A stretch of DNA of 58,116 nt from a virus: the UHGV virus genome UHGV-0195737; one strand, written 5' to 3'. The translations under genes were made by a program, and so were the position numbers. The notes beneath the pieces were generated by a model. It ran no database searches. It was not told the origin of the DNA and was given only the letters and a program-made list of their open reading frames with translations. Shown here in pieces: positions 1,932-47,098 of the stretch; position 1 is the first letter of the stretch; each line of letters opens with the position of its first letter.

Positions 1932-4900
1932 TTAAACCTTTTCGAATAATTGCCCGTCGGTTAGCGCTTTGTGCCAGATACGGAAATTGCGGATGTGTCC
2001 GAATAAGTGGCGCTCACCTGTTGATGTTTGACCGCCGAATCTGATGTTTTTGTCCTGAGTTACTCCACCGTAAGAACATGTTGCATCTGCAACGGCTACA
2101 CCATTCATGATTACATGGAAAGTATCATCATCTTTAACTACCGCACCAATAATGGCCTTATTTGGCAATACGGAAGCGGCGGCGGAATTGATATAAGCTC
2201 CGTCACTTTTGGATAGAGACATGTAATACTTATCGCTACCACGGTTAACCGCAGCGATAACGCCCTGCCCCGTATTAGCGTTGGCAATATCAAAAACACG
2301 CGGCGCGGCGTTTGGCGCTCTGAACCAGTCCTTGTGAAGCTCGATCAGGAAACTGAACGGAGGACGCGCAAGGTTGTTTTTAGTCGTAATGCTTACTAGA
2401 TCGCTCGCACGGGTAGAAGGAGTTGAACCTGAGCAAATATACGATGATGCATTCGGGCCAAGCTCGACTTGAGGTGTCGCTAGTTCCATGTAGTCGCCGG
2501 ACACGAACGCGCTAACCGGAGCAAGCTGAATTTGTGCAGTAACCAGCGTTACGGTTGATTTATACGTCACCACTGCGCGATTCCATCCGGTGATGTTGTC
2601 TGTTGTTACACTAACAGTGATATTGTCTGCACCGCCGCCTGCTTTCGTTACAGTCATGTCGCTTAGTTTGATATACGCATCACACAGGAATGCCAGGCTG
2701 GAAGTATCTTCACCACCAGCAAAACGGATACGCAACCGGACGTCGCTTGACGAACGAAAACGACAAGAAACCGTGACGTACTGTTCATCGTGCTGAGTAG
2801 TGTCGATAACGTTAGCAGTGATCACTGATGCCATGTTGCAAGCACCAGTACCGCCAACTGCACTGTCGTCGATCACGAATTTTCCGTACAGGAAACCGTA
2901 GCTGTCAGTTTCTGCTGTAGCGGTGATATTAGTTGATCGGCCCCAACTTGCAGGAACGCTACCGTTAATAAAGAAGTTTGTGCGAGTACCTTCAATTAAT
3001 AATCCCTCGCGTTCGAAACGTGGCTCATCAATATCAGCAATGGTTAAAACACCGGATTTATTAATATAAGTCGCAGTGCTGGCGCGGGCGAAGCCCACCA
3101 CTTTATCCGACGGGATGGATGTGGTTTCGTCGTTAACCGTTACTTTCTTATAGCCAGGAGCGAAGCCTGCCAGCATATCAAGTGAATCGTTAAACGGTAT
3201 CCATACGTCAGGAAATGGTGCTTCTTCATGAATAAGTGGATCGGATTCGAATTTAGCCCAATCCGTCCAGGTTTCCAAATTGGCGTAATAGGTGCGCATG
3301 TAATACAAACCCGTCGAATTGTACGGGTAATATAATTGCGTGGCCCCGTTTGTATAGTTGCCGTTTTTCAGTACAACCAGTGCACCACCATATTTGCATG
3401 GGTAATGCAGTTCGGTTGTTGCTTTTGATGATGCGCCCTGCCAGTAAACACCGGAATAAGCGGCGGTAAGCGTATCCAGATCGGTGTCAGCTAGTGAGCT
3501 TTTTTGTTCGTGCATAGCGGCAAGGTTGGTGCGGGCCGTGGCTGCATCGTTTGCACCTGTACCACCATGTGATAAATCAAGCGGAATCCATTTTGATTGA
3601 GTGTCGCTATAACAGCCCCACGATGTTCCAGTAAGCCCTAAACGCATAGATGAATCTGCGTTATATACCCAGGTTTCACTACCCCATTGAGCAAGGCGAT
3701 CTACTTTTAAGTTTTCTCTTGCTTCGTCGACTGTTACAGCCCCTGTGCCGCCCTGTTCAATAGCTAACGCCTTCCAGCAATTATCAACCGGACTGTAATA
3801 ACCCCAGCGGCCCGTCGCGTCGAGCTGAAGATAGCACCCTGCTGTCGAGTCGTCCATAGAATAAACTACTGTCCGATTGCTGCCGCTTTGATTAAATCGA
3901 CTAACCTCATTTTTTCTTGCGTGTCGCGTCCATTGTGGGCCAGTGCTTTCACTCCAACGATAAGTATAAAGCGAGCGTGTCCCCCACCCCTGGAAAATGC
4001 CTGTATATGATGGCGAACCATCGTTTACGCTAATGAAGCCTGTTAGATATGCTTCACCGTCCGCGACGTCTTCGGGCCATCCGGTGACGCCTTCGCGAAT
4101 ACGAATAAAGCCAATGTAAGCGGCGGGATTGCCGGAAATATCGGCGCAATCGCGCGGGGCGTTAGTTAGACCAATGTCACCCAATAACACACCAGAACTA
4201 AGAAAACGCGCCCATTCTGACCATGTGAAAGTTGCCGCATCAAAACTACGAAGATAAAACGAAGCATTATAGTTATAAGGGTAATAAATTTGCGTGCATC
4301 CAGAATCAGTATTAGCACTATTCCCAATCACAACAAGCGCACCCGCATTATTGCACGGATAATGGCGATCAGTAGTAGCTTGCGCGTTGAGTTTTTGGCG
4401 ATAAAAACCGGAATACTCGCCCGTGAGCGTATCCAGATCCGTGTCAGCAAGATCGGTTTTTTGCTCGTACATTACTTGTAAATTTGTGCGGGCTTGTCCG
4501 GCGTTACCGCCGCCCGTACCACCATAATTGATGCCTAACTTAATTGCCCCATCAACTGAATAAGCACCCCACCCCGTATTATTCACGAAGATGTAATTTT
4601 GGCCCACGCCGTCCCATAACTGCGTTTCGCCTGTTGAGTTACTCGTCTGCAATAAGCGGCTTACTTCATCCTTCCGGGCGTGACGTGTCCAGCCGTAAGT
4701 CCCATCGGCATTGTTATACATGTATGTATAAAGTGAGCGCGTGTTAGTTCCCACAAAACAGCCGTTAATGATCAGGCCGTCACCGCGTGCCAGCCAGCCT
4801 ACCAAGTAGACTTCACCGGAAGCGATAGACGGGAAACCCGTTGCGGTCGCCTCTTCCAGACGAACAAAGCCAATATAGGCTGATGGGTTAACTGTGCAAT

Positions 4901-5909
4901 CAGGCCAATCACGGCGATCAGCACCCAGGCCAATAAGAGATAGTGAATCTTCTGATAGTGATTTTGCTTGCTCCATGTAGGTTTTGGCGTTCGCTTCCGA
5001 AAGTGCGGCGGCGGTGGCTGATTCTGCGGCGGCGGCGGCATTAGCTGCAATTTCTTGTTCGTCTTCTGCAACATTGGCGGCGCTTGTTTCGGCAGCAGTG
5101 GCGGCTTCTGTAGCGATGGTGGCTTGTTCGGTTGCTGTGGTCGCTGATTCTGCGGCGTTATTCATCCAGATGTACGCCGTGCCGCGATGATCTTTTGCCT
5201 CTGCGGCGGCGGCCGCGGCGGCGGTGGCTTGTTCGGTCGCTACGGCTGCCTGTTCAGTTGCGACGGTTGCTTGCGCGGCGGCTTCGTCACGGGCCGTTTC
5301 GGTAGCGGTCTGCGCGGTCTGCGCGGCGCTGGCGGCATTAGTGGCGATGGTGGCTTGTTCGGTTGCCGTGGTCGCCTGCGTGGTGGCGGTGGCGGCATGT
5401 TTCCCAGCCAGTACGCTGTAATCTTCTGCGGCATTTTTCGCGGTAATAGCTTCATCCCGCGCGGCGGCGGTTGTTTCAACGTCTGCGGCGGTCGCGGCGG
5501 CGTTGGCGTTTGATTGCGCTGTTTCTGCCTGAATAGCGGCTAACAGTGCTTCAACCTGCGCGGCATCACCATAATTTTTCCAGTATTCGACGGCAGCATA
5601 GATCTCTGATTCTTGTCCGGTGAAATAGCGCAATGCCTCCGCTACGTCCTGGGCCAGCCCGTCAACCGAGATCGAATCGCACAGCAAAATACTGTAAGCA
5701 GTACCCGCCGGAATATCCGGTGATGCTGCCGGGGTTACAGACAATTCCGTTTCACTGACAATTTCAGTGATAGAAAAGATCTGAATGGGGTTACTTTTTA
5801 CGATAACAGTACACCCCACGCGGATCATGGATAGCGGCGCTTTAAAATTCGTACCCGTCCCGGTCAGCGTGTTACCGGATACGGCAATGCTTCCAATGGT
5901 GTAGATCAT
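1932..5909 (-). CDS. Long tail fibre protein, repeat-rich
   Basis: 1325 aa; Ala/Thr/Gln-rich low-complexity segment; two tandem copies of a ~250-aa module (TRHARK-EVSR, HYPC-GALVV-YYPYN). Confidence 0.65.
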   Translation of the reverse strand: MIYTIGSIAVSGNTLTGTGTNFKAPLSMIRVGCTVIVKSNPIQIFSITEIVSETELSVTPAASPDIPAGTAYSILLCDSISVDGLAQDVAEALRYFTGQESEIYAAVEYWKNYGDAAQVEALLAAIQAETAQSNANAAATAADVETTAAARDEAITAKNAAEDYSVLAGKHAATATTQATTATEQATIATNAASAAQTAQTATETARDEAAAQATVATEQAAVATEQATAAAAAAAEAKDHRGTAYIWMNNAAESATTATEQATIATEAATAAETSAANVAEDEQEIAANAAAAAESATAAALSEANAKTYMEQAKSLSEDSLSLIGLGADRRDWPDCTVNPSAYIGFVRLEEATATGFPSIASGEVYLVGWLARGDGLIINGCFVGTNTRSLYTYMYNNADGTYGWTRHARKDEVSRLLQTSNSTGETQLWDGVGQNYIFVNNTGWGAYSVDGAIKLGINYGGTGGGNAGQARTNLQVMYEQKTDLADTDLDTLTGEYSGFYRQKLNAQATTDRHYPCNNAGALVVIGNSANTDSGCTQIYYPYNYNASFYLRSFDAATFTWSEWARFLSSGVLLGDIGLTNAPRDCADISGNPAAYIGFIRIREGVTGWPEDVADGEAYLTGFISVNDGSPSYTGIFQGWGTRSLYTYRWSESTGPQWTRHARKNEVSRFNQSGSNRTVVYSMDDSTAGCYLQLDATGRWGYYSPVDNCWKALAIEQGGTGAVTVDEARENLKVDRLAQWGSETWVYNADSSMRLGLTGTSWGCYSDTQSKWIPLDLSHGGTGANDAATARTNLAAMHEQKSSLADTDLDTLTAAYSGVYWQGASSKATTELHYPCKYGGALVVLKNGNYTNGATQLYYPYNSTGLYYMRTYYANLETWTDWAKFESDPLIHEEAPFPDVWIPFNDSLDMLAGFAPGYKKVTVNDETTSIPSDKVVGFARASTATYINKSGVLTIADIDEPRFEREGLLIEGTRTNFFINGSVPASWGRSTNITATAETDSYGFLYGKFVIDDSAVGGTGACNMASVITANVIDTTQHDEQYVTVSCRFRSSSDVRLRIRFAGGEDTSSLAFLCDAYIKLSDMTVTKAGGGADNITVSVTTDNITGWNRAVVTYKSTVTLVTAQIQLAPVSAFVSGDYMELATPQVELGPNASSYICSGSTPSTRASDLVSITTKNNLARPPFSFLIELHKDWFRAPNAAPRVFDIANANTGQGVIAAVNRGSDKYYMSLSKSDGAYINSAAASVLPNKAIIGAVVKDDDTFHVIMNGVAVADATCSYGGVTQDKNIRFGGQTSTGERHLFGHIRNFRIWHKALTDGQLFEKV
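4990..5520. repeat. GC-rich tandem coding repeats inside fibre gene
   Basis: Repeated GGTGGCTTGTTCGGT-type units encoding AT(E/A)QAT-like repeats. Confidence 0.5.
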
Positions 5910-5952
5910 TGCAATGACTCCATTATGTTAATTAACGGAATAATTCTACCAT

Positions 5953-5968
5953 TTTGTGATCTATGTTA
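5953..5968. promoter_or_regulatory. CRP-like palindrome upstream of lipoprotein gene
   Basis: TGTGA-N6-TTACA about 100 bp upstream of the 6069 start, next to CCATTTTGT/ACAAAATG inverted repeat. Confidence 0.25.
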
Positions 5969-6068
5969 CATTTCTGGTTTATACAAAATGTGTTTGTTGA
6001 TTTACATCAATGTTGTAAAAATGCGGTTTATGGATACTACAACCAACGAAACAACGGAGGGTAAGACA

Positions 6069-6308
6069 ATGAAAGGTTTAAAAAATATCGCTATCGCTGC
6101 AATGGTTGCTGGTCTGGTTGGTTGTGCTGATATGCCAAAACGTGAATGTACAGCAATCTATCAAACTGGCGGTAATGAATATGCGGTTGCAGTCTTTGGC
6201 GTTGCAGATGTTGGCGGTCACAAAATGGTTAAGGCCGGGTATCCGTTCAATTTCCAATGGGTGAGCGTTGACCACTTCAAGAAAACGGATTGCCCGGAAC
6301 TGAATTAA
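6069..6308 (+). CDS. Small lipoprotein (moron; possible superinfection-exclusion lipoprotein)
   Basis: Start moved to internal ATG with SD GGAGGG; signal peptide with lipobox LVGC; opposite strand to flanking tail genes. Confidence 0.5.
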   Translation: MKGLKNIAIAAMVAGLVGCADMPKRECTAIYQTGGNEYAVAVFGVADVGGHKMVKAGYPFNFQWVSVDHFKKTDCPELN

Positions 6309-7265: not shown

Positions 7266-10200
7266 TTACCATGATCCGGTAATTCGCCCAATCTGGACGC
7301 GTAACACGCTATTTCCATCTCTGACAGAGATTGTTGTGTTCGTCCATTTCATCGCTCCTTCACCGCTTACTGATCCGTAGTTTTCGAATGTACCGGATTT
7401 ATCCAGCTTCCAGCCAGTACTACCGGAAACATAGTTATTTGACTGGATGTAAGATCCAATTTTCGCGTTAGTGATTGAGGCGTCTTTAATAAACGCTTCG
7501 CGCACATACATTGCACCATTTGTGACATAGAAAGGCGTTGTATATGTGCCGTTTGCCGCTGTCATTAATACAAAGCGGTCAGCAAGGAAAATACATTGCG
7601 ATTGCGTACTCGTACCGCTGCCAGTCAAGCCAAGCGAGATCCCGGAAAAATATTTCATGCCGTTGTTGTCTGCGGCGATCTTAACGCTCCACGTTGCCGA
7701 CATGTCGGTTTCAAGGCCAGCGATGGCGGTTTTATTTTCCTCAATTGATACCGATTGCCCCTCGATTGACGCCGTAATACTTTCAATCTGCGTGGCGGTC
7801 GATTCCTTATAGGTTGTAAACGCTTCGCTCCACTCCGTGATCGACGCCTCGTTTGCTTCCAGCGATGCGCTAATTTCCGCAAACTGAGTAGCATTAGCTT
7901 GTTCATGGGTGGCAAGCGCGGATTGCATTTCGGTAATAGCTGCCGCCACATCGTCGTCTATTTGCGCCTGTAGTTGCTCCAGCTTCTGCGCGGTTGCTTG
8001 TTCATTGGTTGCGATCGTCTGATTAGTTTCAGTGATTGCAGCCTCATTCTCATCAATCTGACTTTGCAGGCTATTAAACTGCGTAGCGTTGGCTTTTTCG
8101 TGGGTAGCGAGTGCTTGCTCCATGTTGCTTATTGCTGACGATATATCACCATCTACTTTAGCCTCAAGGTTGCTAATAGATTCAGATGTGGATGATTCCA
8201 GATCGGTGATCGTCTGGTTAATCTCCGTTATGCTTGCCTGAATATCTTCGTTGACCTGGCTTTCTAATTTTTCGATCGACTGGCTTGTCGAACTTTCAAG
8301 CGTTGCAATGGTTTGTTGCAGTTCGGTTACGTTGGCGCTGATTTCGTCATTGACCTTGCTTTCGAGTGTCGTAAGCGCCTGCGCGGTCGCTTCTTTCTCT
8401 GTAGCGATCACAGTGTCGATGCGCTCAATCTCCGCCTTCGTTTCTGCTTTCTGGTTTTTATACTGTGCCGTCAACGTGGTGCGCGTGCTGGTGTTAGCCA
8501 GTGAGTTATTCATAAGCGCAATAGCTGCGTTTTGCAGGCTGGCGCGTGTCTGGATTAGTTCATTTTCCTGTTCAGTTAACTCGACGCTGATTTCGTTGAT
8601 CTGGCTTTCATGTTCTCCAATTCCATCCTCATTGTTTTTCACGCGTTCTTCCAGGTCTGCGGTCGATTCTTTCAGATCGGTAACAGCCTGGTCAATATCT
8701 ACCGTGGTTTGTTTCAGTTCTTCCACATCGCCCATCAAGCCGCCTGTTACCTCGTCGATGGTTTCTTTAATCATGTCCTGAAATTGCTCACCCTCCATAA
8801 CTTCATTCAGCACGGCATCCGTGATTTCTTCGAAGTTTTCGGACGGCTTACCACTGGCTTCGATAAAGTCAGATACGCCGAAAGCGTTTTTTGTGCGCAC
8901 GTAAACGTAATACGTGTGGCCCGTTGCCATCCCGCCAAAAGTCCACTGATAGCCGCGCCCGGAAAATTGCGCTGATGTTGTTACCAGTGAGAAGTCAGTA
9001 ATCTGGTTTTCTCCAGCGTAATAGAATTCGTAAGTAGTATCAGTCGTTAGCGTGCTGTTGCTGATCGGGTAAACAGTCGCCTGAAAAACACCTGGCACCC
9101 AATTAACACCAGTCGGCGCGGCAGGCGCACCAACAATAAGATCTACCAGTGTTTCCGCTCCCTTCATCCCGGTGTCATTGCGCCCACGAATACCAAGCGA
9201 ATAATTACCGCACTCAAGGCCGAAAAAGTCATACCGGTAATTTTGCGTTTCGTAGCTCGCCACCACGCGCCCGTCGGTGTCATAAATGCGGATCTCAAAG
9301 GTTAATGCGCGGGTAGTGGTTTGAGTTTCCCAGGTGGCGCGGCATTGAACTGTTTCCGATCCAATGTTTATCACTTTCAGGTTTTCGATGTTCGGTACAC
9401 GGAAGTGATTCAGCGTGTCGCTGTTAACCTCAAAGATTGCGCCCTCATCGACAACCGCTTGCTTGTTCGGATCGTGCTGCGCGGCCTCAATGGTGTATAC
9501 GCTGTTATTTTCGGTTTCGGCTACGCTAGTGATTCGACATAAAACGGGTTTTGCCGCTTCGGTTGATACAGCAAATACAGTACCGTTCCGAATCCATGCC
9601 GGGGCCGCCGCTAAGGTGATCTCGTTTCCATTCACTCCGGTGATCTGGTGTTTTTTAAATTTACCATCGCTATCGAGCAAGCTGATGGTGTCGCCTGCCG
9701 TAATGTACTCGCTATCAACCTTATCAACCGTTATCACGTTCCCGTTATTCGCCACGATACGACCGCCTAAACGCGCGCCAGCACGGTTATTATCGAGAAT
9801 CTCGATAATATCCCCTGGTGTAAAGTGAATCGCGTCACGGGCCATTTTAAACGTGAATTTCGACGGCTCGCGTTTTGCTGTTTCTATCAGCCATTTGCCC
9901 GCGCGGTACGCTTGCCCGCGTGATGTACAGCCGAACGCCTCCAGTGTGGTTTCATTGTAACCATCGCGGGCGATTAGCTCATCATCCGCTACATACTCTT
10001 TTGATTGCTCCCAGCCGTTTTCCGGATCAGTCCAGGATACAATCACGGCGTTGTAACATTCCGCACGCGCAATGCTTGAACGGGTGAATGCACCATCAAC
10101 GACGTTTGCGTTTGTGATGGTTGCAATCGGATCTTGCGGTGCATCGAGCATTACAGTAAGTGTTTGACCGTCCCATAACGCAATCCCCCGGAACATTCCG

Positions 10201-11243
10201 GCAATGTTGTCCAGTAAGTCGCGGGCGCTCATTTGCTCCGTAATGTATGCATTAAGCGTCACGCGCGGCTCAAGGCCGCCATAACCATCGTCAACCAACT
10301 GATCGCAGTATTGGGAAAGCGTGTATAATGCGCCGTCGTCAACGTCAATATAACCAGCATGGCGGGCAAGGCCAAAACGCTCGTTTTTAACCAGATACCG
10401 GAAGATCCACGCTGGGTTATTGGTGTACACCTGTTTCATCCCGCCCAGCCATAAACCGGAATAAGTGCGCGTTTCCGGATCGTAGTTATCCGGTACATCA
10501 ACAATCAGGCCACGCATGTGATAAGTGCGTGTCGGCGTGTCGGTATACTGGTCATGATCAATCACCGCGCCCGCTACAGCGGTGTGAGGATAAGACAAGT
10601 TATCGTCGATAATTTCACTGTAGCTATTCCAGCGGGTATCATTCTGCAATAGATCGCCCGTGCTGTCAGGTGTTATGCGGCGAACGCGAATATCGAACGG
10701 TTTTTCGTCCGGCGCATCAATGATGTGTGATTCCAGATATTCACCGCTAATCTTACCCGGACCGATTTGCACGGCCTTAATCGCCGACCAGATTGATGAT
10801 GATGATGGTTTTACATCAATCGCCATAAAAACTGATGTTTCATGCTGGTTTGATTCGCTGTCACTTTCCACCAGTGAATCCACGCCAATATTCAACCGGA
10901 CGCGCGTCACGTTCGGATCTGATACCGTCCTTACCAGTGGCGTGTCATATTTCACCTGCGCGTTAACCATTACCGTAGATTCAATGGCGTTGAAGCCGTT
11001 GATCGGTGACTGGTCGGCAGTACCCGGACGCCAGGCGACGCTAACGCCTGGGATACTGGTATTACCCACGGCATCCGTAACAGGTGTGTCATTAAGCATT
11101 ACGCAGTTTAACGGGGCAGCGGTATTGACCGGACCGTAAATCGGCCCTTCACTCAATATATCCAGAACCCGGTAAAATTGCTTATGAAATAAATTGTCGT
11201 TTATTAATGTTGGTGTTTTTGCTTTACCACCGCCGCCGCCCAT
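7266..11243 (-). CDS. J: Host specificity / tail tip protein J-like
   Basis: N-terminus matches lambda J as recalled (DxxSEGPIxGPV, NDTPV); long central coiled-coil repeat region; position after I. Confidence 0.8.
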   Translation of the reverse strand: MGGGGGKAKTPTLINDNLFHKQFYRVLDILSEGPIYGPVNTAAPLNCVMLNDTPVTDAVGNTSIPGVSVAWRPGTADQSPINGFNAIESTVMVNAQVKYDTPLVRTVSDPNVTRVRLNIGVDSLVESDSESNQHETSVFMAIDVKPSSSSIWSAIKAVQIGPGKISGEYLESHIIDAPDEKPFDIRVRRITPDSTGDLLQNDTRWNSYSEIIDDNLSYPHTAVAGAVIDHDQYTDTPTRTYHMRGLIVDVPDNYDPETRTYSGLWLGGMKQVYTNNPAWIFRYLVKNERFGLARHAGYIDVDDGALYTLSQYCDQLVDDGYGGLEPRVTLNAYITEQMSARDLLDNIAGMFRGIALWDGQTLTVMLDAPQDPIATITNANVVDGAFTRSSIARAECYNAVIVSWTDPENGWEQSKEYVADDELIARDGYNETTLEAFGCTSRGQAYRAGKWLIETAKREPSKFTFKMARDAIHFTPGDIIEILDNNRAGARLGGRIVANNGNVITVDKVDSEYITAGDTISLLDSDGKFKKHQITGVNGNEITLAAAPAWIRNGTVFAVSTEAAKPVLCRITSVAETENNSVYTIEAAQHDPNKQAVVDEGAIFEVNSDTLNHFRVPNIENLKVINIGSETVQCRATWETQTTTRALTFEIRIYDTDGRVVASYETQNYRYDFFGLECGNYSLGIRGRNDTGMKGAETLVDLIVGAPAAPTGVNWVPGVFQATVYPISNSTLTTDTTYEFYYAGENQITDFSLVTTSAQFSGRGYQWTFGGMATGHTYYVYVRTKNAFGVSDFIEASGKPSENFEEITDAVLNEVMEGEQFQDMIKETIDEVTGGLMGDVEELKQTTVDIDQAVTDLKESTADLEERVKNNEDGIGEHESQINEISVELTEQENELIQTRASLQNAAIALMNNSLANTSTRTTLTAQYKNQKAETKAEIERIDTVIATEKEATAQALTTLESKVNDEISANVTELQQTIATLESSTSQSIEKLESQVNEDIQASITEINQTITDLESSTSESISNLEAKVDGDISSAISNMEQALATHEKANATQFNSLQSQIDENEAAITETNQTIATNEQATAQKLEQLQAQIDDDVAAAITEMQSALATHEQANATQFAEISASLEANEASITEWSEAFTTYKESTATQIESITASIEGQSVSIEENKTAIAGLETDMSATWSVKIAADNNGMKYFSGISLGLTGSGTSTQSQCIFLADRFVLMTAANGTYTTPFYVTNGAMYVREAFIKDASITNAKIGSYIQSNNYVSGSTGWKLDKSGTFENYGSVSGEGAMKWTNTTISVRDGNSVLRVQIGRITGSW

Positions 11244-13299: not shown

Positions 13300-13467
13300 A
13301 TGAACGATAAGCTATGGCGGCTAACCTTGTTTATGAGTAGCGGGCGTGATGTTGAGGCTGAATTCGATAATCCCAGCGACGCATTGGAAACAGCTCTCGA
13401 CCTGTCAGAAAAAGATGATCGCGTCCTGGGCTACCGGATTAAACCGATTAAAAACGGGGATCAGTAG
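13300..13467 (+). CDS. Hypothetical small protein (moron cassette b)
   Basis: 55-aa ORF, not in ORF track; SD AAAGGGG; first gene of plus-strand cassette. Confidence 0.4.
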   Translation: MNDKLWRLTLFMSSGRDVEAEFDNPSDALETALDLSEKDDRVLGYRIKPIKNGDQ

Positions 13468-13468
13468 G

Positions 13469-13819
13469 ATGCAAAAATATAAGCTCGAAGTGTTTACGGA
13501 TCGGTGCAATTGGGAATGTATAGGTTTATATGACACAGACGTTAAAGCACATACGGAAGGGCGAGAACTGCTGCGATGTTGGTCTAATGCCCGCGACTAT
13601 GTGGTCACTCCAGTACAAATAGCGGAAAAGGTGGAAGATATGAAATACGATATTGATAACAATGCTTGTTTTAAAGAAAACCTTGCGGATTCTATGGATC
13701 AATCTTGCCCGGAAATACACGCGCACGGTTTCCCGGCAGACGACCCGAAAGCAAAACAGGAATACGAAAAAGCGGCAAAAGATTTCTGCATCGATAACCT
13801 GGGCGCTTTCAATAAATAA
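13469..13819 (+). CDS. Hypothetical protein (moron cassette b)
   Basis: 116 aa from internal ATG of track ORF 13346-13819; coupled to upstream ORF. Confidence 0.5.
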   Translation: MQKYKLEVFTDRCNWECIGLYDTDVKAHTEGRELLRCWSNARDYVVTPVQIAEKVEDMKYDIDNNACFKENLADSMDQSCPEIHAHGFPADDPKAKQEYEKAAKDFCIDNLGAFNK

Positions 13820-13828
13820 GGTGGCAGT

Positions 13829-14077
13829 ATGGCGCGGCGTAATCACGGAGACTATGTATACACGTTGAAACAAGCCGCCCGCCTTATCGGTTATCATGAG
13901 CACGAATTTATTGATTTGCTGATTGAGCGCGGGATTTTGTACCAGGTCTGTTTAACGCTGTACCCGAAAGCGAAATATTTGCAGGAAAAGTTATTCATCA
14001 TCATGACGGATGAAAACCAGGTTAATCATTCATTCGTCACTGACAAGGGCGTTAATTATCTGCGTGATAACCTGTAG
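13829..14077 (+). CDS. Putative small DNA-binding protein (excisionase/HTH_17-like)
   Basis: 82 aa; YTLKQAARLIGYHEHEFIDLLIERGIL resembles Xis/AlpA-type HTH. Confidence 0.4.
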   Translation: MARRNHGDYVYTLKQAARLIGYHEHEFIDLLIERGILYQVCLTLYPKAKYLQEKLFIIMTDENQVNHSFVTDKGVNYLRDNL

Positions 14078-14085
14078 GACCGCAT

Positions 14086-14289
14086 ATGTTAAAGTACGAC
14101 GGGCAAGAAACAGTCAGGTTTACTGGTTTTACTAAGGGGAACAATAAGGAGCTAACAGAATATTTTAGCTTAGATATTGGCGATGTTTACCGAGTAGAAA
14201 AATACTTACCCTCAATTAATTCTTTCATAATCATTAACAAAGAAAATCAAGGGGTGCTTGTTACATTCAACGAAGTGGAGTTGCCTTAA
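14086..14289 (+). CDS. Hypothetical protein (moron cassette b)
   Basis: 67-aa ORF in operon-like spacing. Confidence 0.4.
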   Translation: MLKYDGQETVRFTGFTKGNNKELTEYFSLDIGDVYRVEKYLPSINSFIIINKENQGVLVTFNEVELP

Positions 14290-14370
14290 ATGAATAGAGT
14301 GGACGAAGTAATTGAAAATGTTCTGGTAGTGGCTGGCGCAATCGCCATTGTTTATGCCTTTCTGAATTAA
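14290..14370 (+). CDS. Putative hydrophobic microprotein (26 aa)
   Basis: ATG overlaps upstream stop (TAAATG); single predicted TM helix. Confidence 0.25.
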   Translation: MNRVDEVIENVLVVAGAIAIVYAFLN

Positions 14371-14381
14371 CGGAGTGAATC

Positions 14382-14519
14382 ATGAAAATCGAAGTTTTAG
14401 CACTAATAGCAATGGGATTGATAGTATTTGGCGTACACGCTGCGGATTTGGACTGGTGCGCAATAGCTGAGAATATGGCACACGCTCACCCAATGGGATT
14501 GATGCACATGAACTTCTAA
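14382..14519 (+). CDS. Putative secreted peptide (45 aa)
   Basis: SD GGAG; N-terminal signal peptide ending VHA-AD; His-rich C-terminus. Confidence 0.35.
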   Translation: MKIEVLALIAMGLIVFGVHAADLDWCAIAENMAHAHPMGLMHMNF

Positions 14520-15216: not shown

Positions 15217-15245
15217 ACATCTTTACGCGTTGCTACGCGAAAAAT
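15217..15245. repeat. 29-bp conserved hairpin element, copy 1
   Basis: ACATCTTTACGCGTTGCTACGCGAAAAAT; 28/29 identical to 27307-27335; upstream of M. Confidence 0.5.
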
Positions 15246-15356
15246 GAGATATTCATCACAAGAATTATAACCAGTTTACAAAATGGCTTCACACAGGACG
15301 CAACAAGATGTATATAGAAAGCAAGAAGAAAGCAGTACCAACAAAGGAGGCCCAAG

Positions 15357-15524
15357 ATGAAAGGCAACGATAAACACTACGCAGTCGTAATGCTTAACGA
15401 CGCATTCGAACAAGTAGAAGTAGCGATTGTTAAAGGCTTCGATGATGCGTTCAAAATGGGCCAGTTCTACATGAACGTGAAAGCAAACGAATATCGGGAT
15501 TTCTACCTGAAAGCGGTCAACTAA
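15357..15524 (+). CDS. Hypothetical small protein (moron cassette c)
   Basis: 55-aa ORF with strong SD AAGGAGG; not in ORF track. Confidence 0.45.
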   Translation: MKGNDKHYAVVMLNDAFEQVEVAIVKGFDDAFKMGQFYMNVKANEYRDFYLKAVN

Positions 15525-15542
15525 GGATGATGGGGGTGGGCT

Positions 15543-15797
15543 ATGAAACTGGTAGCGATTGATAAAAACCTGAAAGCACAGAAAAACGCACAGGACCGGA
15601 TCATCAAAAAAGGTAAGGCTTTATTAAACGCTTTCCTGAGAAAAGAAGCCTACCCCAAAAAATTACGCGATGGATACGGCTACAAAATGGATATTAACCC
15701 CGACTGGCGGCTTTACAGTCAGGACTTAAAGGTTTGGTTAATTGTTGAACACCACAAATACAATGAATTATGCGGCGTGCGCGGTTGCCATAAGTGA
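15543..15797 (+). CDS. Hypothetical basic protein (moron cassette c)
   Basis: 84 aa, Lys-rich, C-terminal HHKYNELCGVRGCHK; SD GGGGGTGGG. Confidence 0.45.
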   Translation: MKLVAIDKNLKAQKNAQDRIIKKGKALLNAFLRKEAYPKKLRDGYGYKMDINPDWRLYSQDLKVWLIVEHHKYNELCGVRGCHK

Positions 15798-15805
15798 GGT
15801 GGGAT

Positions 15806-15898
15806 ATGGAAGATGATAAATTTACATGGCGGGAGATCTGGAATATTTGGCAGGTGATTTTCGGAAGGGGATATGTCGCGCGGAATGGTCGATTATAG
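15806..15898 (+). CDS. Putative microprotein (30 aa)
   Basis: SD GAGGTGGG then ATG; Trp-rich. Confidence 0.25.
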   Translation: MEDDKFTWREIWNIWQVIFGRGYVARNGRL

Positions 15899-15904
15899 GG
15901 GTAA

Positions 15905-16087
15905 ATGATGATTATTAATGAAACGGAAGAATGTAGGCGAATCACTCTTAGCATTGAGTATGACGAAAGATTATGGCTTGAAAGCGACTGCGAACTTATC
16001 GTAATAGACAAAAAGCAAGCCGCCGAACTAATAAAAGCATTACAGCTTTATGTAAACAACGAATTTAAAAACGACGAAGTTGAATAA
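15905..16087 (+). CDS. Hypothetical acidic protein (moron cassette c)
   Basis: 60-aa ORF, AT-rich codon usage unlike flanking tail genes. Confidence 0.4.
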   Translation: MMIINETEECRRITLSIEYDERLWLESDCELIVIDKKQAAELIKALQLYVNNEFKNDEVE

Positions 16088-16125: not shown

Positions 16126-18462
16126 GCGGCGTGGTTGCAATATGCCGCCAGGACGCGTGCTTTGTTCTCTGACTACACTCATAGCTACGCGCTTCATTGT
16201 GTCTTCAAGTCTGCGGCTATCATCATCACTAAAACCGTTTGTCGTTTGAACTGTGATACTGACAGGCATGTTGATGCCACCGCTGCCGCCCAGGTCGCGG
16301 CCTGGTGTAACACGCCCACCTTCACCGGGGATCATGTACTGTTTCCCGCCAGTGGTAGTAAACAGTTCTGGTATACCGTGCTCACCAACCCTGTAAAGAT
16401 TGCCACCGTTAACCGCGCCGCCGTTGTAGCGCCCGCCGCCGAAAATCGACGTCGCCAGTGACATGATCGCGGATAGTGCCGCCGCGCCAGCCGCCGCCCA
16501 GCTACCGCCAGTTGACGCCGCTGTCGCCGCTGCCGCCGGGGCCGCTGCCGCTGCAATCTGACCTTGCGCCGCTACCGCGCCAGCCGTGGTGCTGGCTTGC
16601 GTTGCCTTACTCTGACTTTCCATCATGATTTGATCGGCTATCCAGTTCCCGGCAATGTCGGCAAGCCTGTTACCCACCGTACCGAGTATATTGCTTCCCA
16701 GGTTAGCAAACATCTCACTGAGGGATTGCGTACCGTTCAATAATCCGGTGATAGCGTTGCTCATGCCGCCTTTTAAGCCGCTGACGCAATCGCCTATTAG
16801 GGCGTTAGTATCGCTTTGCGCCTGCCATTGTTCCCACTTCAGGTTGGCGATGGTTTGCTCATGCTGGAGTTGTTCAGCCCGGATTTGTGCCTCTGAGGCG
16901 TTCAGATCTAACAACATTTGCTTACGGATGGCCCATTCATTTTGCGCCTGCTGAATGGGATCTACTTGCCCTTTGAGTTTATCCATAGGATTAATCATGT
17001 TATCCCATTTATCTTGCAAGGCTTCGGCTTCAAGTCCAGCCAGCGTGCGATCCCTTTCTTCTCTTATGCCCTTCATAGCGCCTTTGTATTCAAGGAGCGT
17101 GATTTTGCCCTGGGCGAAGGCAGCATCAATGGCCATGCCGCTCTTTAATGCTTTGCGCATGGCGGCGGCGTCTTTGTTGTACTGGTCGGAAACACTGATA
17201 CCCTGATCGCCTAAGCGGTCATAGTCTGATTTTTTCGCTTTCTTCTGTTTTTTCGGCTTGCCAACTGGTTTGTCAAATCCGGTGATACTGCCATCATTAT
17301 TTGAGGCTTGTTCTTCCTTCTGCGCTTCTTCTGTGCGTTTAAGCATTCCTTGATGGTCTTCCCATGCTAACATCGCCCAACCTAAGCGTTTACCGTATTT
17401 CTTGAACGGATCGCTGTTATATTCATCCTTGCTTTTTCCGACCAATTCCTTCGCCCACTTATAAGCATCCATCATTGCCTTAATTGGCGTCACCATTTCG
17501 ATGATCTTGTCGGCAACCTCCTTAGCCTTAACCGCAACATCATCAAACATGTCGATAAACTCACCTCCAGCGCGCTTCAATGTATTAAAGCAGTTAGCTG
17601 CAAAACTCACTTTTTCGCCCAGCCATCGTCCACCAGTGGCAGTATTATCCAGGATAGTGACCACTCTGTCTGACACGCCTAATAGATCATCGAGTTTTTC
17701 AACCAGTCCCATGACTTCGATTTTTAGCGAATTGAACGCAACGCCGGACGTGCGCGGGAGTTGTTCAAATTGCTCGTTTGTTTCTTTCGTTGCCGCCTGG
17801 ATAGCGTTGACCATTCTTTCAGCGGTGATCTTACCTTCCAGCATTTCGGCGCGGAACTGGCCCATTGATAACCCCATTTGTTTTGCCATTGTTTGTACGA
17901 TGGTTGGGGTGTTTTCCAGTAAACTGTTAAATTCTTCCGCACGCAGTACGCCGCCGTCAACCGCCTGCCGGAATTGGCGCATGGAGTTAGACATTTGTTC
18001 GGCTGATGCCCCGCCTAACGCCCCCATTTTTTGAAGCGTGCCTACCAGATTAAGGATCTGCCCTTCGGTGGCAGATGTATTTTTTAATGAGATGGCTAAA
18101 CCTTGCCATAGGTCGGTTGTATCTTTAATACTTTGCCCGGTCTGGTGAGCGATAGATTTAAGGCCATCAAAAACCCGGTTTGCGCTTTCTGCGTCACCTG
18201 TCAGCATTTTGATTTTTATGCGTAGCTGTTTTGCCTGCTCTGCCATGTCAATAAACTGGCGCACGGCCTCCGCTGCGACTAACAGGTGGATAACCCTGGT
18301 CAGTGCTTTGATTGATGTTTTCAGTGTATTAACCTGGCGGTCAGCACGTTTTGCGCCGCGCTCGATACTGTCGAATGTCTGATCGGCCTGTCGCTGTACG
18401 ACAAGGAGTTGCCCTGTTTTGGCGTCGATCTCGTAATAAATTGTACCTAAACTGGTAGCCAT
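16120..18462 (-). CDS. H: Tail tape measure protein
   Basis: 780 aa, long alpha-helical protein with Ala/Gly-rich C-terminal segment; sits between chaperone and M. Confidence 0.85.
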   Translation of the reverse strand: MATSLGTIYYEIDAKTGQLLVVQRQADQTFDSIERGAKRADRQVNTLKTSIKALTRVIHLLVAAEAVRQFIDMAEQAKQLRIKIKMLTGDAESANRVFDGLKSIAHQTGQSIKDTTDLWQGLAISLKNTSATEGQILNLVGTLQKMGALGGASAEQMSNSMRQFRQAVDGGVLRAEEFNSLLENTPTIVQTMAKQMGLSMGQFRAEMLEGKITAERMVNAIQAATKETNEQFEQLPRTSGVAFNSLKIEVMGLVEKLDDLLGVSDRVVTILDNTATGGRWLGEKVSFAANCFNTLKRAGGEFIDMFDDVAVKAKEVADKIIEMVTPIKAMMDAYKWAKELVGKSKDEYNSDPFKKYGKRLGWAMLAWEDHQGMLKRTEEAQKEEQASNNDGSITGFDKPVGKPKKQKKAKKSDYDRLGDQGISVSDQYNKDAAAMRKALKSGMAIDAAFAQGKITLLEYKGAMKGIREERDRTLAGLEAEALQDKWDNMINPMDKLKGQVDPIQQAQNEWAIRKQMLLDLNASEAQIRAEQLQHEQTIANLKWEQWQAQSDTNALIGDCVSGLKGGMSNAITGLLNGTQSLSEMFANLGSNILGTVGNRLADIAGNWIADQIMMESQSKATQASTTAGAVAAQGQIAAAAAPAAAATAASTGGSWAAAGAAALSAIMSLATSIFGGGRYNGGAVNGGNLYRVGEHGIPELFTTTGGKQYMIPGEGGRVTPGRDLGGSGGINMPVSITVQTTNGFSDDDSRRLEDTMKRVAMSVVREQSTRPGGILQPRRK

Positions 18463-18500
18463 GATTTAACCTCATACAAAATGTGATCTGTGCCTCTATT

Positions 18501-18542
18501 TTATACAAAATGGCTTTACTTTACCGACTCCATTTTGTATAA
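18501..18542. promoter_or_regulatory. Perfect 13-bp inverted repeat (putative regulator binding site)
   Basis: TTATACAAAATGG-N16-CCATTTTGTATAA upstream of plus-strand cassette d. Confidence 0.4.
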
Positions 18543-18593
18543 GGAAGTCAAAGGAAAAGATAGTTAAACAAAACAATTAAGTGGGGGTGTTTT

Positions 18594-18818
18594 ATGAAAC
18601 GTTATGATGGTATCTATGAAAAAATTGGTGGCTTCCACAAAGGCGAACAATTTAAAATCATCGACGGCGAAGTGTACGCCGGGAGAAACAATAACAAGGA
18701 ATGGGAGCACATTGATCACCCAGCACAAAAGGAAGCCTGGTTGAGATTAGTTAAAGGGTTTCAAGTCGGCAATAGAATCATTAAAGACAAAAACATTGTA
18801 AAAATTGCTGATATTTAA
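18594..18818 (+). CDS. Hypothetical protein (moron cassette d)
   Basis: 74-aa ORF with SD GTGGGGG. Confidence 0.45.
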   Translation: MKRYDGIYEKIGGFHKGEQFKIIDGEVYAGRNNNKEWEHIDHPAQKEAWLRLVKGFQVGNRIIKDKNIVKIADI

Positions 18819-18829
18819 CGGGGTGTTTT

Positions 18830-19183
18830 ATGAAACGGTTAGCGAAAGTAGTAATGATGGTGGCGCTGGTTGGTTTTGCATTTAACGCCCACGCCGACGA
18901 TAAAATGGATAAGGCTATTTATGAATGCGCTCACGCCGCGCACCTGTACGACATAAGACACGGTGACGGTACGGGGTATAAAGAAATTATTTTTGACATG
19001 GCGTGTAAACAAAAAGCCTTAATACCATTTCTTGACAAGGAAATAGTTAAAGCAAGAAAAATACACGAAAAATACGAAGCATTGAAAGCGGAAAATAAAG
19101 ATCCCGAAGTCGCGGAAGTGTTCAGACATGGAGAAATAAAGGGGCACGCAATCCATAACAGAATCAACGCTGGCGCGGCCTAA
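18830..19183 (+). CDS. Secreted/periplasmic protein of unknown function
   Basis: 117 aa; signal peptide ending AFNAHA-DD; conserved Cys pair. Confidence 0.5.
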   Translation: MKRLAKVVMMVALVGFAFNAHADDKMDKAIYECAHAAHLYDIRHGDGTGYKEIIFDMACKQKALIPFLDKEIVKARKIHEKYEALKAENKDPEVAEVFRHGEIKGHAIHNRINAGAA

Positions 19184-19193
19184 TAAACAAAAC

Positions 19194-19216
19194 GCCCGGA
19201 TCTACCGGGCTTTTTT
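19194..19216 (+). terminator. Bidirectional rho-independent terminator
   Basis: GCCCGGA-TCTA-CCGGGC followed by TTTTTT; T-tract on the other strand too. Confidence 0.6.
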
Positions 19217-19879
19217 CTGCCTGCGATTTTTCATTCTTTCCAGTGCCTTTCTAGCGGCCTCCATTCGCTCGTCATAAACCTGTTTATTTATCTGAACGTT
19301 TGGTTTAGCTTTCTCGTTTTTCGCGTCTGGCGGCATTTTAGCGCGTACAGCGGCCCTATATCCGGTCATGGTCATGGCCCATGCTTCCGATTCAGATAAT
19401 CCCAGGTGAGCAACGGCAGAATAAACGAATTCCAGCACGTTAAAGGCTGGCTTATATTCCCCTTCCGGGATCTCTCCGGCGTCTTCTTCCGGCCCGTCAC
19501 CGATTAGACCGTGGTACATGCAATGCTGTGCCAGCGTGATAATATCTTCGGTTGGCATTAATCCGGGTTTCTGTCGTAGCTTGCCCGCAGGAGTAAATCG
19601 ACATTCGCCCACCAGGTCTGTTATATCGTCGTCAGAGCAACATTTCAGGATATGGATGGACGATTGCACTATCTCACCATAACACCGCGCCAGAATGCGA
19701 TTACGGAGGTCTGGATCGTTAGGCAGGCGGGAGGGATACTTGCTACCGTGAATGGTTGCGAATAACTGGACAAGCTCACGATCGCCGCCAATTTTCGCCA
19801 TTGCAGCGAAGCAGGGGTTAAACACGTAGCGTTTATTATCCACCACCGCCGCAAATTGTCCGGTACGAACATGAATCAT
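19202..19879 (-). CDS. Putative tail assembly chaperone
   Basis: Position between major tail gene and tape measure; start set at ATG with SD GGTGA; no frameshift partner seen. Confidence 0.4.
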   Translation of the reverse strand: MIHVRTGQFAAVVDNKRYVFNPCFAAMAKIGGDRELVQLFATIHGSKYPSRLPNDPDLRNRILARCYGEIVQSSIHILKCCSDDDITDLVGECRFTPAGKLRQKPGLMPTEDIITLAQHCMYHGLIGDGPEEDAGEIPEGEYKPAFNVLEFVYSAVAHLGLSESEAWAMTMTGYRAAVRAKMPPDAKNEKAKPNVQINKQVYDERMEAARKALERMKNRRQKKAR

Positions 19880-19923: not shown

Positions 19924-20436
19924 TTATTCGGTTTGCTGTTCTTCTTCTGTTCCGGCGTCTTCTTCTACCGGAAGATCATCAACGCCTACTTGTCCGGCGC
20001 TTGAACATTCAATAGACCAGGTAGAAACATCATCGTGAGGATTTTCCTCTTCAAAGCTGGTGCAAAGAAATGGGCCTTCGGTCACATCAAGCGGGGAAAC
20101 AATTTTCAACCACACATACGGCTGATTACCAGTGGCCTCGCCTGGCGTCATTACGTGACGTTTTAGTGCCTTCTGGTTATGGATTTCTTCGGTACGGGAT
20201 ACGCCATCACCGGAGAAGGTAACAGATTTGTAAGTTACCATTGATTCCTTTGTGTAATCTGCTGATTTATCAGCGGTGGCGTCGGCAGTTTCCCATTCAA
20301 CGGAAAGCGTTTTACCGCGCATCATGCCTAATGCCTGGTATTCCTCATCGGCTGGCTTCGCATTCGGGCAAGCAATAGCGAAGAATACCGCGACGTCGCG
20401 GCCTGTAAATGTGCCTTTTTCGCAAGTTTGAGACAT
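19924..20436 (-). CDS. Putative major tail tube protein
   Basis: 170 aa with acidic C-terminal tail; strong SD AGAGG; followed by terminator, position upstream of chaperone. Confidence 0.5.
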   Translation of the reverse strand: MSQTCEKGTFTGRDVAVFFAIACPNAKPADEEYQALGMMRGKTLSVEWETADATADKSADYTKESMVTYKSVTFSGDGVSRTEEIHNQKALKRHVMTPGEATGNQPYVWLKIVSPLDVTEGPFLCTSFEEENPHDDVSTWSIECSSAGQVGVDDLPVEEDAGTEEEQQTE

Positions 20437-45748: not shown

Positions 45749-45858
45749 CCTTTAATCTCCTTCGCTGTTAATACCACATACAAGGCTTTATTCGCGGCGC
45801 TCCACATTTCGGCATCGTGAAGCATTTCCGCTACCGCCAGTTTGAATTGAAGCGCCTG
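45736..45858 (-). CDS. Hypothetical small protein (40 aa)
   Basis: Strong SD AGGAGGTGA; not in track. Confidence 0.35.
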
Positions 45859-45897
45859 GATAACCATAATGTCACCTCCTGTTGTTTACGTTATGTA

Positions 45898-46188
45898 TTA
45901 ATGGTATCGGACTTTATCGAGGGGTTTTTCCCCAAGCTGGCGCGGCTGCGTTGCGTGAAAGTAGTTGCCGCTTTCATTTTCCTGATACCATTTTGTTGCT
46001 CCCTTGCGACGTCCTTTAACGCTATTTGGTTCGCATTTTTCCTCATTTGCAAAGCGAATAGCTTTTTCCACTCTATCAACCTTCTGTATGTGCGGGCCTT
46101 CATCTTGCTCTGCTGCCCGTTTCATCCGTCGGCGGGCGCGGGCGTTAAGTTTGCTCTCACAGTTACCGTAAGTAATTTTCGCATTCAT
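45898..46188 (-). CDS. N: N-like transcription antiterminator
   Basis: Arg-rich motif ARARRRMKRAAEQ near N-terminus; resembles P22 gp24 as recalled; nut-like site upstream. Confidence 0.5.
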   Translation of the reverse strand: MNAKITYGNCESKLNARARRRMKRAAEQDEGPHIQKVDRVEKAIRFANEEKCEPNSVKGRRKGATKWYQENESGNYFHATQPRQLGEKPLDKVRYH

Positions 46189-46218
46189 AATCTTATTTCC
46201 TTAGTTGAAATTTATGTC

Positions 46219-46252
46219 TGCACATTTCAGTGCAACCGGATTGTTAAAGAGC
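46219..46252 (-). promoter_or_regulatory. nutL-like site (boxA + boxB hairpin)
   Basis: Minus strand reads GCTCTTTAACAAT (rrn/lambda boxA-like), then hairpin TGCAC-TGAAAT-GTGCA, about 30 nt before N start. Confidence 0.45.
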
Positions 46253-46444: not shown

Positions 46445-46450
46445 TAATGT

Positions 46451-47098
46451 TTATGGCAGGTTTACGATCTTTGCATCCACCACCACGCCAATAATTTTTG
46501 ATTCAGGGTTTAGCGGGATTGGTGGGTACAGCGGATTAAGCGAACGTAAAAGCCTTTGACCTCCATCAATGATTAACTGTTTAAACGTCGGCGTTTGCCC
46601 TTCCTCCAGTTGGGCTATAACCAGTTTGCCGTCAATAGCTGGCGCGTGCGGATCGACAAGTATCATCGTCCCTGCCGGGATACTTAATCCCTGCGGTGCG
46701 TTCATTGACTCACCTTTTGCGACCAGCCAATAACTATCATCCGAACAAATCACGCTCGTGTTAACGTGTGGTAGTAATGCGCGTTTTGCTTCTTCCATGT
46801 AGTTTCCTGCGTCTTTCCAGTCAATAACCGGATAACGTCCCACGTCGAGCGGCGGCGCTCCCGGCAACGTATTTGAAACTGAATCATCGATAACCATCCC
46901 GTCATGAGTGACCGTAAACTGCCGACGACCAAGCGCCCGCATAATCCGCGCAATATCTTCAAGATTTGGCTCGCGGCGACCATTCAGCCAGTGAGATAAG
47001 CCGCCTTTTGTGATCCCCATGAGATCCGCCAATGAATCCTGGCTCATGCCTTGCGCCCGCATGAGTTGTTTTGCTAAGTCATACCATTTTGTTTTCAT
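46451..47098 (-). CDS. CI-like repressor (HTH plus LexA-type S24 peptidase domain)
   Basis: N-terminal HTH (QDSLADLMGITKGGLSHWLNG); C-terminal AKGESM serine motif and downstream Lys. Confidence 0.75.
   Translation of the reverse strand: MKTKWYDLAKQLMRAQGMSQDSLADLMGITKGGLSHWLNGRREPNLEDIARIMRALGRRQFTVTHDGMVIDDSVSNTLPGAPPLDVGRYPVIDWKDAGNYMEEAKRALLPHVNTSVICSDDSYWLVAKGESMNAPQGLSIPAGTMILVDPHAPAIDGKLVIAQLEEGQTPTFKQLIIDGGQRLLRSLNPLYPPIPLNPESKIIGVVVDAKIVNLP

Follow-up and report, generated by a model that had tools for sequence, protein, structure and literature searches.

An opposite-strand cassette beside the tape-measure gene of an mEpimmI-group coliphage: a probable moron with exchangeable envelope cargo and opposed copies of a phage-wide word at its candidate promoter

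The first moron to be described, gene 15 of phage HK97, lies between the tail-assembly chaperone and tape-measure genes, has been reported to possess its own promoter, its own terminator and a deviant base composition, and encodes an inner-membrane protein whose exclusion activity depends on which tail the incoming phage has (PMC3594210). Phages of the mEpimmI group are reported to match lambdoid phages in frequency among human faecal isolates; exclusion of phages by lipoproteins from their structural cluster (Lpp021 and Lpp010) has been shown experimentally, although neither the slot nor the control word considered below is discussed there (PMC11893012). Here we analyze a two-gene cassette in the virus genome UHGV-0195737 (58,116 nucleotides (nt), the whole of which we refer to as the window), which lies on the plus strand between the minus-strand tape-measure gene and a gene encoding a DUF6246 protein, together with the perfect inverted repeat that precedes it. 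To judge by its sequence, the window is a temperate coliphage of the mEpimmI group, related to mEp021; its immunity region (window 45800-47700) is 82-88% identical to those of mEp021, mEp515, mEp010 and other mEpimmI phages, and its layout, with the nutR1/nutL/nutR2 order of mEp021, agrees with that published for the group (PMC11893012). Taken together, we consider it probable that the locus is an autonomous opposite-strand moron cassette with exchangeable envelope cargo, and that its repeat consists of opposed copies of a word used throughout the phage rather than a private palindromic operator.

The resemblance to HK97 gene 15 lies in an independent unit within the tail operon, at the same junction, which encodes a small envelope protein (exported here by prediction). 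However, gp15 resides uncleaved in the inner membrane, whereas the product of the window is predicted to be a cleaved periplasmic protein, and no sequence similarity between the two was found; moreover, the unit in the window runs on the opposite strand, no relative examined leaves its slot empty, and the cargo is swapped behind a common promoter region. Lpp021 and Lpp010, as well as proteins of the Cor/Llp type, are likewise envelope-targeted and come in several sequence types, and the Lpp proteins belong to the same phage group and to its structural cluster (PMC11893012), but the Lpp exclusion lipoproteins have a lipobox and are not related in sequence to the 117-amino-acid (aa) protein of the cassette. 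The window also has a lipoprotein gene in a different slot, surrounded by tail-fibre genes but oriented opposite to them (79 aa, MKGLKNIAIAAMVAGLVGC..., 6069..6308, plus strand, without a Pfam match) and may be the equivalent of the mEpimmI Lpp exclusion lipoproteins. By contrast, mEp021_63, a hypothetical protein of 138 aa, and the 137-139-aa family to which it belongs share with the cassette its slot, promoter region, inverted repeat, terminator position and a homologous signal peptide, but their mature domain is not detectably related to the 117-aa protein, and in their loci a leader open reading frame (ORF) of 27-29 aa precedes the gene in place of the 74-aa gene of the window. Ipe of mEp021 was also considered as a product of the slot and was put aside, since its reported length of 72-83 aa (PMC6379469) fits neither cassette product nor mEp021_63.

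The comparison of related loci covered 54 in all, 46 from IMG/VR and eight reached through cassette proteins; the IMG/VR loci were found via the DUF6246 protein (49 loci, 46 of them with both flanking genes), and a scan of the genome_contigs set with the DUF6246 protein as query found no relative. In every locus the slot holds 646-1275 nt of plus-strand cargo, and an empty slot was found in none of the 54. Of the features by which morons were recognized in HK97 and HK022, the cassette has its own terminator and a deviant base composition; its candidate promoter, TTTACT-17-TATAAG, is laid out like PR, PL and other promoters of the phage and is conserved in relatives, although a consensus scan did not call it, and its flanking genes are conserved around non-orthologous cargo in the 54 relatives but are never adjacent there. 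Clustering of the 46 IMG/VR loci gave 12 cargo families in 14 arrangements, each of the 14 including a protein with a Sec signal, a lipobox or a membrane protein. The cargo includes the 27-29-aa leader ORF; a 116-119-aa family, which is that of the window; the 137-139-aa secreted family with mEp021_63; a 203-219-aa lipoprotein with a VasI/TagO domain (PF11319, E = 1e-15); a 124-aa lipoprotein with a weak BamE-like match; a pair of membrane proteins of 35 aa and 100-107 aa; a 106-aa protein; a 165-aa secreted protein; and 245-aa lipoproteins. The 74-aa gene is present in only three cargo variants.

What stays fixed around this cargo is found at both ends of the slot. The first ~95 nt beside the tape-measure start are kept in all relatives regardless of cargo (38 distinct versions in the 54 loci), and the terminator that overlaps the DUF6246 gene is conserved, the same hairpin or a variant of it ending the slot in relatives. 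The ribosome-binding site (RBS) and the first ~20 nt of signal-peptide coding sequence are common to the genes for the 117-, 137-, 138- and 165-aa proteins and the 203/219-aa lipoproteins, while the 124- and 245-aa lipoproteins begin differently (MKN...) and lack the shared start. When the profiles of the 117-aa and 137-aa families were compared with each other, residues 1-27 aligned and nothing beyond, which argues that non-related mature domains have been joined to a homologous export signal. Single-linkage clustering had joined the 137-139-aa proteins to the 117-aa family, but this membership was rejected as the mature domains are not alignable. We also considered whether cargo type tracks tape-measure type; it does so only loosely, and the tape-measure type of ~780 aa carries at least seven arrangements. 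In most relatives, the slot opens with the conserved 27-29-aa ORF (MKNVNYRPNEHERYADFIEEMLKALKNKN), preceded by a hairpin, GGCCGGATTAACCGG; the ORF, which is not in the window, was seen at 3300-3390 of one locus (L001) and upstream of the secreted-protein gene in three others (L009, L010 and L013). Together with its hairpin, it may be a leader peptide or an attenuator.

The slot can thus be described, from the sequences compared, as an exchange hot spot for envelope proteins, here occupied by an uncharacterized periplasmic family. A moron-type cassette is a known kind of element; what is new is the conserved scaffold with swapped cargo and a control word that had not been described. The common promoter and signal peptide with swapped mature domains would make a clear case of modular exchange at a sub-gene boundary.

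The inverted repeat belongs to the fixed part of this scaffold. Its arms are complementary at 13 of 13 positions, with 16 nt between them and centres 29 base pairs (bp) apart, and among the perfect inverted repeats of the 58-kb window with 3-40 nt in the loop it ranks first in length; when the 131-nt intergenic region was shuffled, 13 bp was attained once in 5000 trials. Apart from it, just one perfect inverted repeat in the window reaches 11 bp with at most 40 nt in its loop, namely TGCTATCAGGC-N16-GCCTGATAGCA at 53557-53594. Across the 38 distinct versions, neither the left arm CTATTTTATACAAAATG nor the right arm TTTTGTATA shows any variation, while the 16-nt spacer and a third partial copy (18472-84) vary. 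Alignment of 22 distinct sequences delimits a conserved core of 11-12 bp, TATACAAAATG / C(A/G)TTTTGTATA. Of the 13 pairs of the full repeat, 10 never vary, no pair shows a compensatory change, and 13 of the 22 sequences have lost the innermost pair. Conservation therefore acts on the sequence rather than on pairing. The pattern TATACAAAATG-N12-24-CATTTTGTATA has 44 matches in 2.9 million IMG/VR contigs, with constant spacing, once per contig and in this phage group only, and the repeat region had no match in Rfam.

Each arm of the repeat is a copy of the word CCATTTTGTA, in its fuller form CCATTTTGTA(W)A, which is the most over-represented 10-mer in the window (nine exact copies against 0.19 expected) and which, with up to one mismatch, has 22 matches against 6.2 +/- 2.4 in shuffled sequences. 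Seven of the nine exact copies are intergenic in a window of which 9% is intergenic (P about 1.4e-6). Copies of the word are found at PR and PL, at the heads of other opposite-strand cassettes and at the promoter that precedes the nut site behind the methyltransferase gene (the nutR2 position); single copies stand at 32346, 46329, 47172, 51046 and elsewhere, and there are other pairings too. Because the arm word is also found at PR, PL and the nut-preceding promoter, the repeat would belong to a promoter or regulator code used across the phage. The word is retained at the matching sites of MagusPhagus and mEp021 and in 18 of 18 distinct PR regions, with drift in the adjacent bases. In addition, a forward copy faces the tail gene after each plus-strand island of the tail module (5982-, 13233-, which is weak, 15277- and 18504-; a trailing sign gives the strand). 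A full-text literature search for the word returned only irrelevant primer sequences.

Two geometries recur at the promoters so marked (Table 1). In one of them, a forward copy lies over the spacer and the start of the -10 element, as CTTG(A/T)CC-N8-CC(A/G)TT(T/C)TGTA(A/T)ACT; in the other, a reversed copy stands 1-2 nt upstream of the -35 element, as GT(A/T)TACAAAATGG-N1-2-(-35)-N17-TATAWW. The candidate cassette promoter has both, the left arm abutting TTTACT and the right arm lying over the spacer and TATAAG. From the sequence, and by analogy with PR, where TAAACT follows the word, we infer that cassette transcription starts near 18550. A CRP-like site, TGTGA-N6-CCTCT, is centred ~60 nt upstream of this start, at 18483-18498 (a consensus reading only). 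Such sites also stand before two other opposite-strand cassettes, TTTTGTGATCTATGTTACATTT at 5949-5970 and TGAGA-N6-TCACA at 15245-15260, the latter being centred near -70.5 of the promoter of the cassette with a ParE-like gene. The presence of CRP-like sites at three opposite-strand cassettes suggests an input from cyclic AMP and CRP.

Several candidates for the reader of the word were tried. It is doubtful as a CI operator, as it is not palindromic and the PR region has separate CTTGC..GCAAG repeats that are more operator-like; at the cassette promoter, no conserved CI-like operator was evident, the operators of this repressor having no definition. As the operators of Rep021 have none, a CI-type repressor is still possible, if doubtful, as the reader. 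The case for the 84-aa winged-helix protein encoded first after PR was weakened by its variation (54-100% identity) across contigs in which the word is unchanged, and sites for IHF, Fis, LexA, PhoP, OmpR or CpxR fit the word poorly by eye.

By a heuristic hydropathy check, the second cassette gene encodes a preprotein with the tripartite layout (n-, h- and c-region) expected for cleavage by signal peptidase I, namely MKRLAK (charge +3), VVMMVALVGFAF (mean hydropathy about 2.1) and NAHA|DD, and these features are retained in nine of nine aligned members of the 117-aa family. The product is therefore predicted to be exported via Sec and cleaved after AHA to give a helical periplasmic protein of 95 aa (isoelectric point (pI) 6.7), in which the two invariant cysteines, C33 and C59, probably form one disulfide. 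Relatives keep the reading frame, the signal peptide and both cysteines. Identity within the family drops to about 35%, against 65-93% for the DUF6246 protein and the tape-measure N-terminus in the same loci. The family is rare: in 5.8 billion proteins it forms 16 clusters, which stem without exception from E. coli or phage sources and carry no annotation. An indexed search gave five of them, to which an exhaustive profile search (1.84 billion representatives) added four, besides a spurious match to a repeat protein, and a second profile search brought the total to 16. At all 16 places where the surroundings were read (11 by contig look-up and five IMG/VR loci), the family occupies this slot, and no plasmid homologue was found. 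Among cultured phages, mEp515 has a tblastn match to the 117-aa protein (37% identical) just beside the tape-measure start.

The first gene is likely to be real, given that it differs from its copy in one relative (L008) at 4, 4 and 28 sites in codon positions 1, 2 and 3; its product is presumably cytoplasmic, since it has no hydrophobic segment. An 18-nt exact direct repeat, GGGGTGTTTTATGAAACG, spans the RBS and first codons of both genes (copies at 18584-18601 and 18820-18837). In two relatives (L006 and L007), a 129-aa homologue of gene 2 stands directly behind the same leader without gene 1, and the direct repeat is therefore a likely place for gene 1 to have been gained or lost by recombination. 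AlphaFold2 models of both products were built from shallow alignments and are of low confidence, that of the 117-aa protein being all helix (predicted local distance difference test (pLDDT) 52) and that of the 74-aa protein comprising beta strands and one helix (pLDDT 65); fold searches with these low-confidence models gave no match for the 74-aa protein and no fold assignment for the 117-aa protein.

Downstream of gene 2, the terminator hairpin is followed by TTTTTT on the plus strand and by GTTTTGTTT on the minus strand, and it was called on both strands; termination on the minus strand is probably weaker, as the tail GTTTTGTTT is interrupted. The hairpin overlaps the last codons and the stop codon of the DUF6246 gene, with the stop codon within the loop. 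Base composition sets the unit apart from its neighbors, with a G+C fraction of 0.37-0.43 (18400-19300) against 0.48-0.53 in the flanks. Much of the preliminary description of the locus agrees with these results: both plus-strand genes exist as ORFs of the lengths given, the 117-aa product has the proposed signal peptide, the 13-bp repeat with its 16-nt spacer is perfect, the terminator is bidirectional, and the promoter-like region, genes, terminator and low G+C content fit an autonomous unit. Its location between the tail chaperone gene and H holds for H, the adjoining tape-measure gene, but "tail chaperone" is a label from position only for the DUF6246 gene, DUF6246 being without an assigned function. 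Similarly, the unit is an opposite-strand cassette as stated, but whether it is the third depends on counting, as there are four plus-strand islands in the tail module.

In the mechanism that we propose, transcription would run from TTTACT-17-TATAAG, beginning near 18550 and ending at the hairpin, and one trans-acting factor common to the whole immunity group would read each copy of the word, tying cassette expression to the lysis/lysogeny programme of the phage. The window encodes a Q antiterminator (PF03589, E = 1e-28), and hence late transcription should read through the terminators of the tail operon; Q-modified late transcription would cross the cassette in antisense. The exported protein would act in the cell envelope, in the exclusion of superinfecting phages or in other protection of the lysogen. 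Given its position, and by analogy with HK97 gene 15 and the mEpimmI Lpp lipoproteins, superinfection exclusion or envelope protection is the likeliest role. If the exported proteins are indeed exclusion or protection factors, the slot catalogues at least 12 envelope-acting families, which would shape how phages compete with one another and with their hosts in gut E. coli, and the reader of CCATTTTGTA, once identified, would define the transcription circuit of the whole phage group.

Several points weigh against this interpretation. The "extra DNA" of a strict moron was not demonstrated, because no relative with an empty slot was found, and a simple promoter scan called nothing at the cassette, because the -10 element lacks the usual T at position six. 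The word could be an intrinsic promoter element and not a protein-binding site. Conversely, should the prophage repressor use the word as its operator, lysogens would have the cassette switched off, and the cassette product would act early in infection rather than in lysogenic conversion. Furthermore, no exclusion, defence, immunity or inhibitor protein resembles the cassette proteins: both gave nothing significant in Pfam, PHROGs, NCBIfam or PADLOC, and a profile search of PDB sequences returned chance GAPDH matches only, with no solved immunity or inhibitor protein among them. Both structure models (pLDDT 52 and 65) are too poor to use.

How the repeat is read can be weighed among several alternatives. 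The preliminary description had regarded it as a strong candidate site for a dimeric regulator, that is, a private palindromic operator at which a dimer binds both arms as one site and controls the cassette alone. The perfect symmetry, which is statistically unusual, the invariant arms around a spacer of varying sequence and the constant arm spacing in 44 of 44 exact matches would all suit such an operator. Nevertheless, we regard it as very unlikely, since the 29 bp between arm centres correspond to about 2.8 helical turns, against the one or two typical of helix-turn-helix dimers, the innermost pair is often broken in relatives, and the word is found singly at PR, PL, 32346, 46329 and 51046 as well as in other pairings. 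Moreover, no conserved regulator gene travels with the slot, and the only candidate encoded by the cassette, the 74-aa protein, is missing from nearly all relatives that keep the repeat. Least probable of all is a role for the repeat as RNA, folded into a hairpin in the late minus-strand transcript just ahead of the tape-measure gene, where it would be a stabilizer, processing site or translational switch. Stable folding is predicted for either strand (-14.5 and -13.4 kcal/mol, z = -3.9 and -3.3), and a 98-nt minus-strand fold pairs 18531-18544 with 18470-18483 (14 nt, 93% complementary), covering the GAGG RBS of the tape-measure gene; however, this pairing is probably incidental, because the third copy that a switch needs is not conserved in relatives. 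There are no compensatory changes, those that occur break or wobble pairs, the covariation score is below that of every shuffle control, Rfam gave no match, and the lone copies of the word elsewhere are unable to form hairpins. The main rival with regard to the function of the word, although an unlikely one, dispenses with a trans-acting factor: the word would be an intrinsic promoter module, serving as spacer plus -10 element or, when reversed, as an UP-like A-tract, and the repeat a pair of back-to-back sigma-70 promoters, one for the cassette and one for a re-start of tail-gene transcription past the terminator and into the tape-measure gene. The forward copies that face the tail genes after the plus-strand islands, the invariant leftward TAAAAT, and the position of the word within a promoter with a nut site downstream, both at PR and at 38559-, are in keeping with such a module, as is the reversed word ACAAAATGG, which we take to resemble a proximal UP-element subsite. 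On the other hand, the leftward promoter has a poor -35 element (2-3 of 6 positions), re-initiation is unneeded in the presence of Q, and sigma-70 needs no fixed 8-nt word at -20 to -13, whereas the word is exact at unrelated promoters and in diverged relatives while neighboring bases drift.

The role of the cargo and the overall architecture allow other readings as well. An envelope-directed function, as had been suggested for the 117-aa protein, has become more plausible by comparison, all 14 cargo arrangements in the IMG/VR loci including an exported or membrane protein. The receptor masking and enzyme inhibition proposed for it are conjectures, and no match to a family, fold or defence system was found. 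Rather than excluding phages, the slot proteins might benefit the host as periplasmic immunity factors or inhibitors that counter, for example, type VI effectors, colicins or lysozymes. This would fit the nature of the cargo (small periplasmic proteins and lipoproteins, in which conserved pairs of cysteines are frequent), its high allelic diversity, the VasI/TagO-like lipoprotein that is one common cargo and is type VI secretion-associated, and a RefSeq "TagO" annotation in this slot of an E. coli prophage. We think it quite unlikely, however, as solved immunity or inhibitor proteins give no sequence match, and neither a plasmid homologue nor any occurrence beyond this phage slot was found. 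A more tenable but still tentative possibility is a secretion cassette, with a fixed, regulated promoter and a mostly shared signal peptide to which recombination joins interchangeable mature domains, in which the word serves as a dispersed, asymmetric operator of the immunity group. Phage P1 has asymmetric C1 operators dispersed over its genome. As in lambda OR/OL and the P1 C1 operators, a short word recurs here at promoters, over the -10 element and spacer or beside the -35 element and sometimes in opposed pairs, but, in contrast to operators of the lambda OR/OL type, the word lacks palindromic symmetry, even though the repressor of the prophage is of CI type. If the first part of this possibility holds, the locus would be a rapidly diversifying periplasmic defence or immunity locus beside the tape-measure gene; if the second holds, control of the P1 C1 type would operate within a lambda-like phage that has CI, N and Q, and the cassettes, PR, PL and the promoter at the nutR2 position would be switched together. 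Compared with these alternatives, we continue to favor the autonomous moron cassette with opposed copies of the phage-wide word.

Table 1. Positions of the cassette features, word-bearing promoters and surrounding genes in the window.
Feature	Position	Strand	Remarks
Tape-measure gene, 780 aa	16120..18462	-	PF20155, E = 2e-51
Intergenic regulatory region, 131 nt	18463..18593		Tape-measure start codon to gene 1
Invariant TGTGAT	18483..18488	+	In 38 of 38 distinct relatives; possibly the left half-site for CRP
Inverted-repeat left arm TTATACAAAATGG	18501-18513	-	Word copy read as CCATTTTGTATAA on the minus strand, facing the tape-measure gene
Candidate -35 element TTTACT	18515..18520	+	TTCACT, TTCATT or TTTGCT in relatives; 17 nt before candidate -10
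Inverted-repeat right arm CCATTTTGTATAA	18530-18542	+	Forward word copy
Candidate -10 element TATAAG	18538..18543	+	TATAAA in most relatives
Cassette gene 1, 74 aa	18594..18818	+	Basic protein, pI 9.3
Cassette gene 2, 117-aa preprotein	18830..19183	+	
Predicted signal peptide, residues 1-22	18830-18895	+	Predicted cleavage after AHA
Intrinsic terminator	Hairpin 19194-19210, T-run 19211-19216	Both	Stem GCCCGG/CCGGGC
DUF6246 gene, 228 aa	19202..19888	-	PF19759, E = 3e-54
Tail-tube gene	19924..20436	-	Precedes the DUF6246 gene
N-like arginine-rich protein ORF	45898..46188		
CI-type repressor gene	46451..47098		Helix-turn-helix and S24 peptidase
boxA/nut-like site	46241-52	-	
boxA/nut-like site	47266-77	+	
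boxA/nut-like site	38528-39	-	Downstream of the methyltransferase gene
Word over spacer and -10 start	47172		PR; boxA follows at 47266
Word over spacer and -10 start	42419	-	
Word over spacer and -10 start	38559	-	boxA follows at 38539-28
Reversed word before -35	46341	-	PL-like; before nut and N-like gene
Reversed word before -35	32358	-	
Reversed word before -35	15274	+	Promoter of ParE-like cassette

Besides the cassette and the 79-aa lipoprotein gene, the tail module has two further opposite-strand islands on the plus strand. The island at 13300-14519 comprises five small genes, including one for an ANT/KilAC-like protein of 82 aa, and contains a 45-aa ORF with a signal-peptide-like N-terminus. 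In the island at 15357-16087, a 55-aa gene is followed by a ParE-like toxin gene (PF24732), and the two are a probable toxin-antitoxin pair. Finally, the tail-fibre region contains two minus-strand ORFs of exactly 1325 aa each, at 1932-5909 and 7266-11243.

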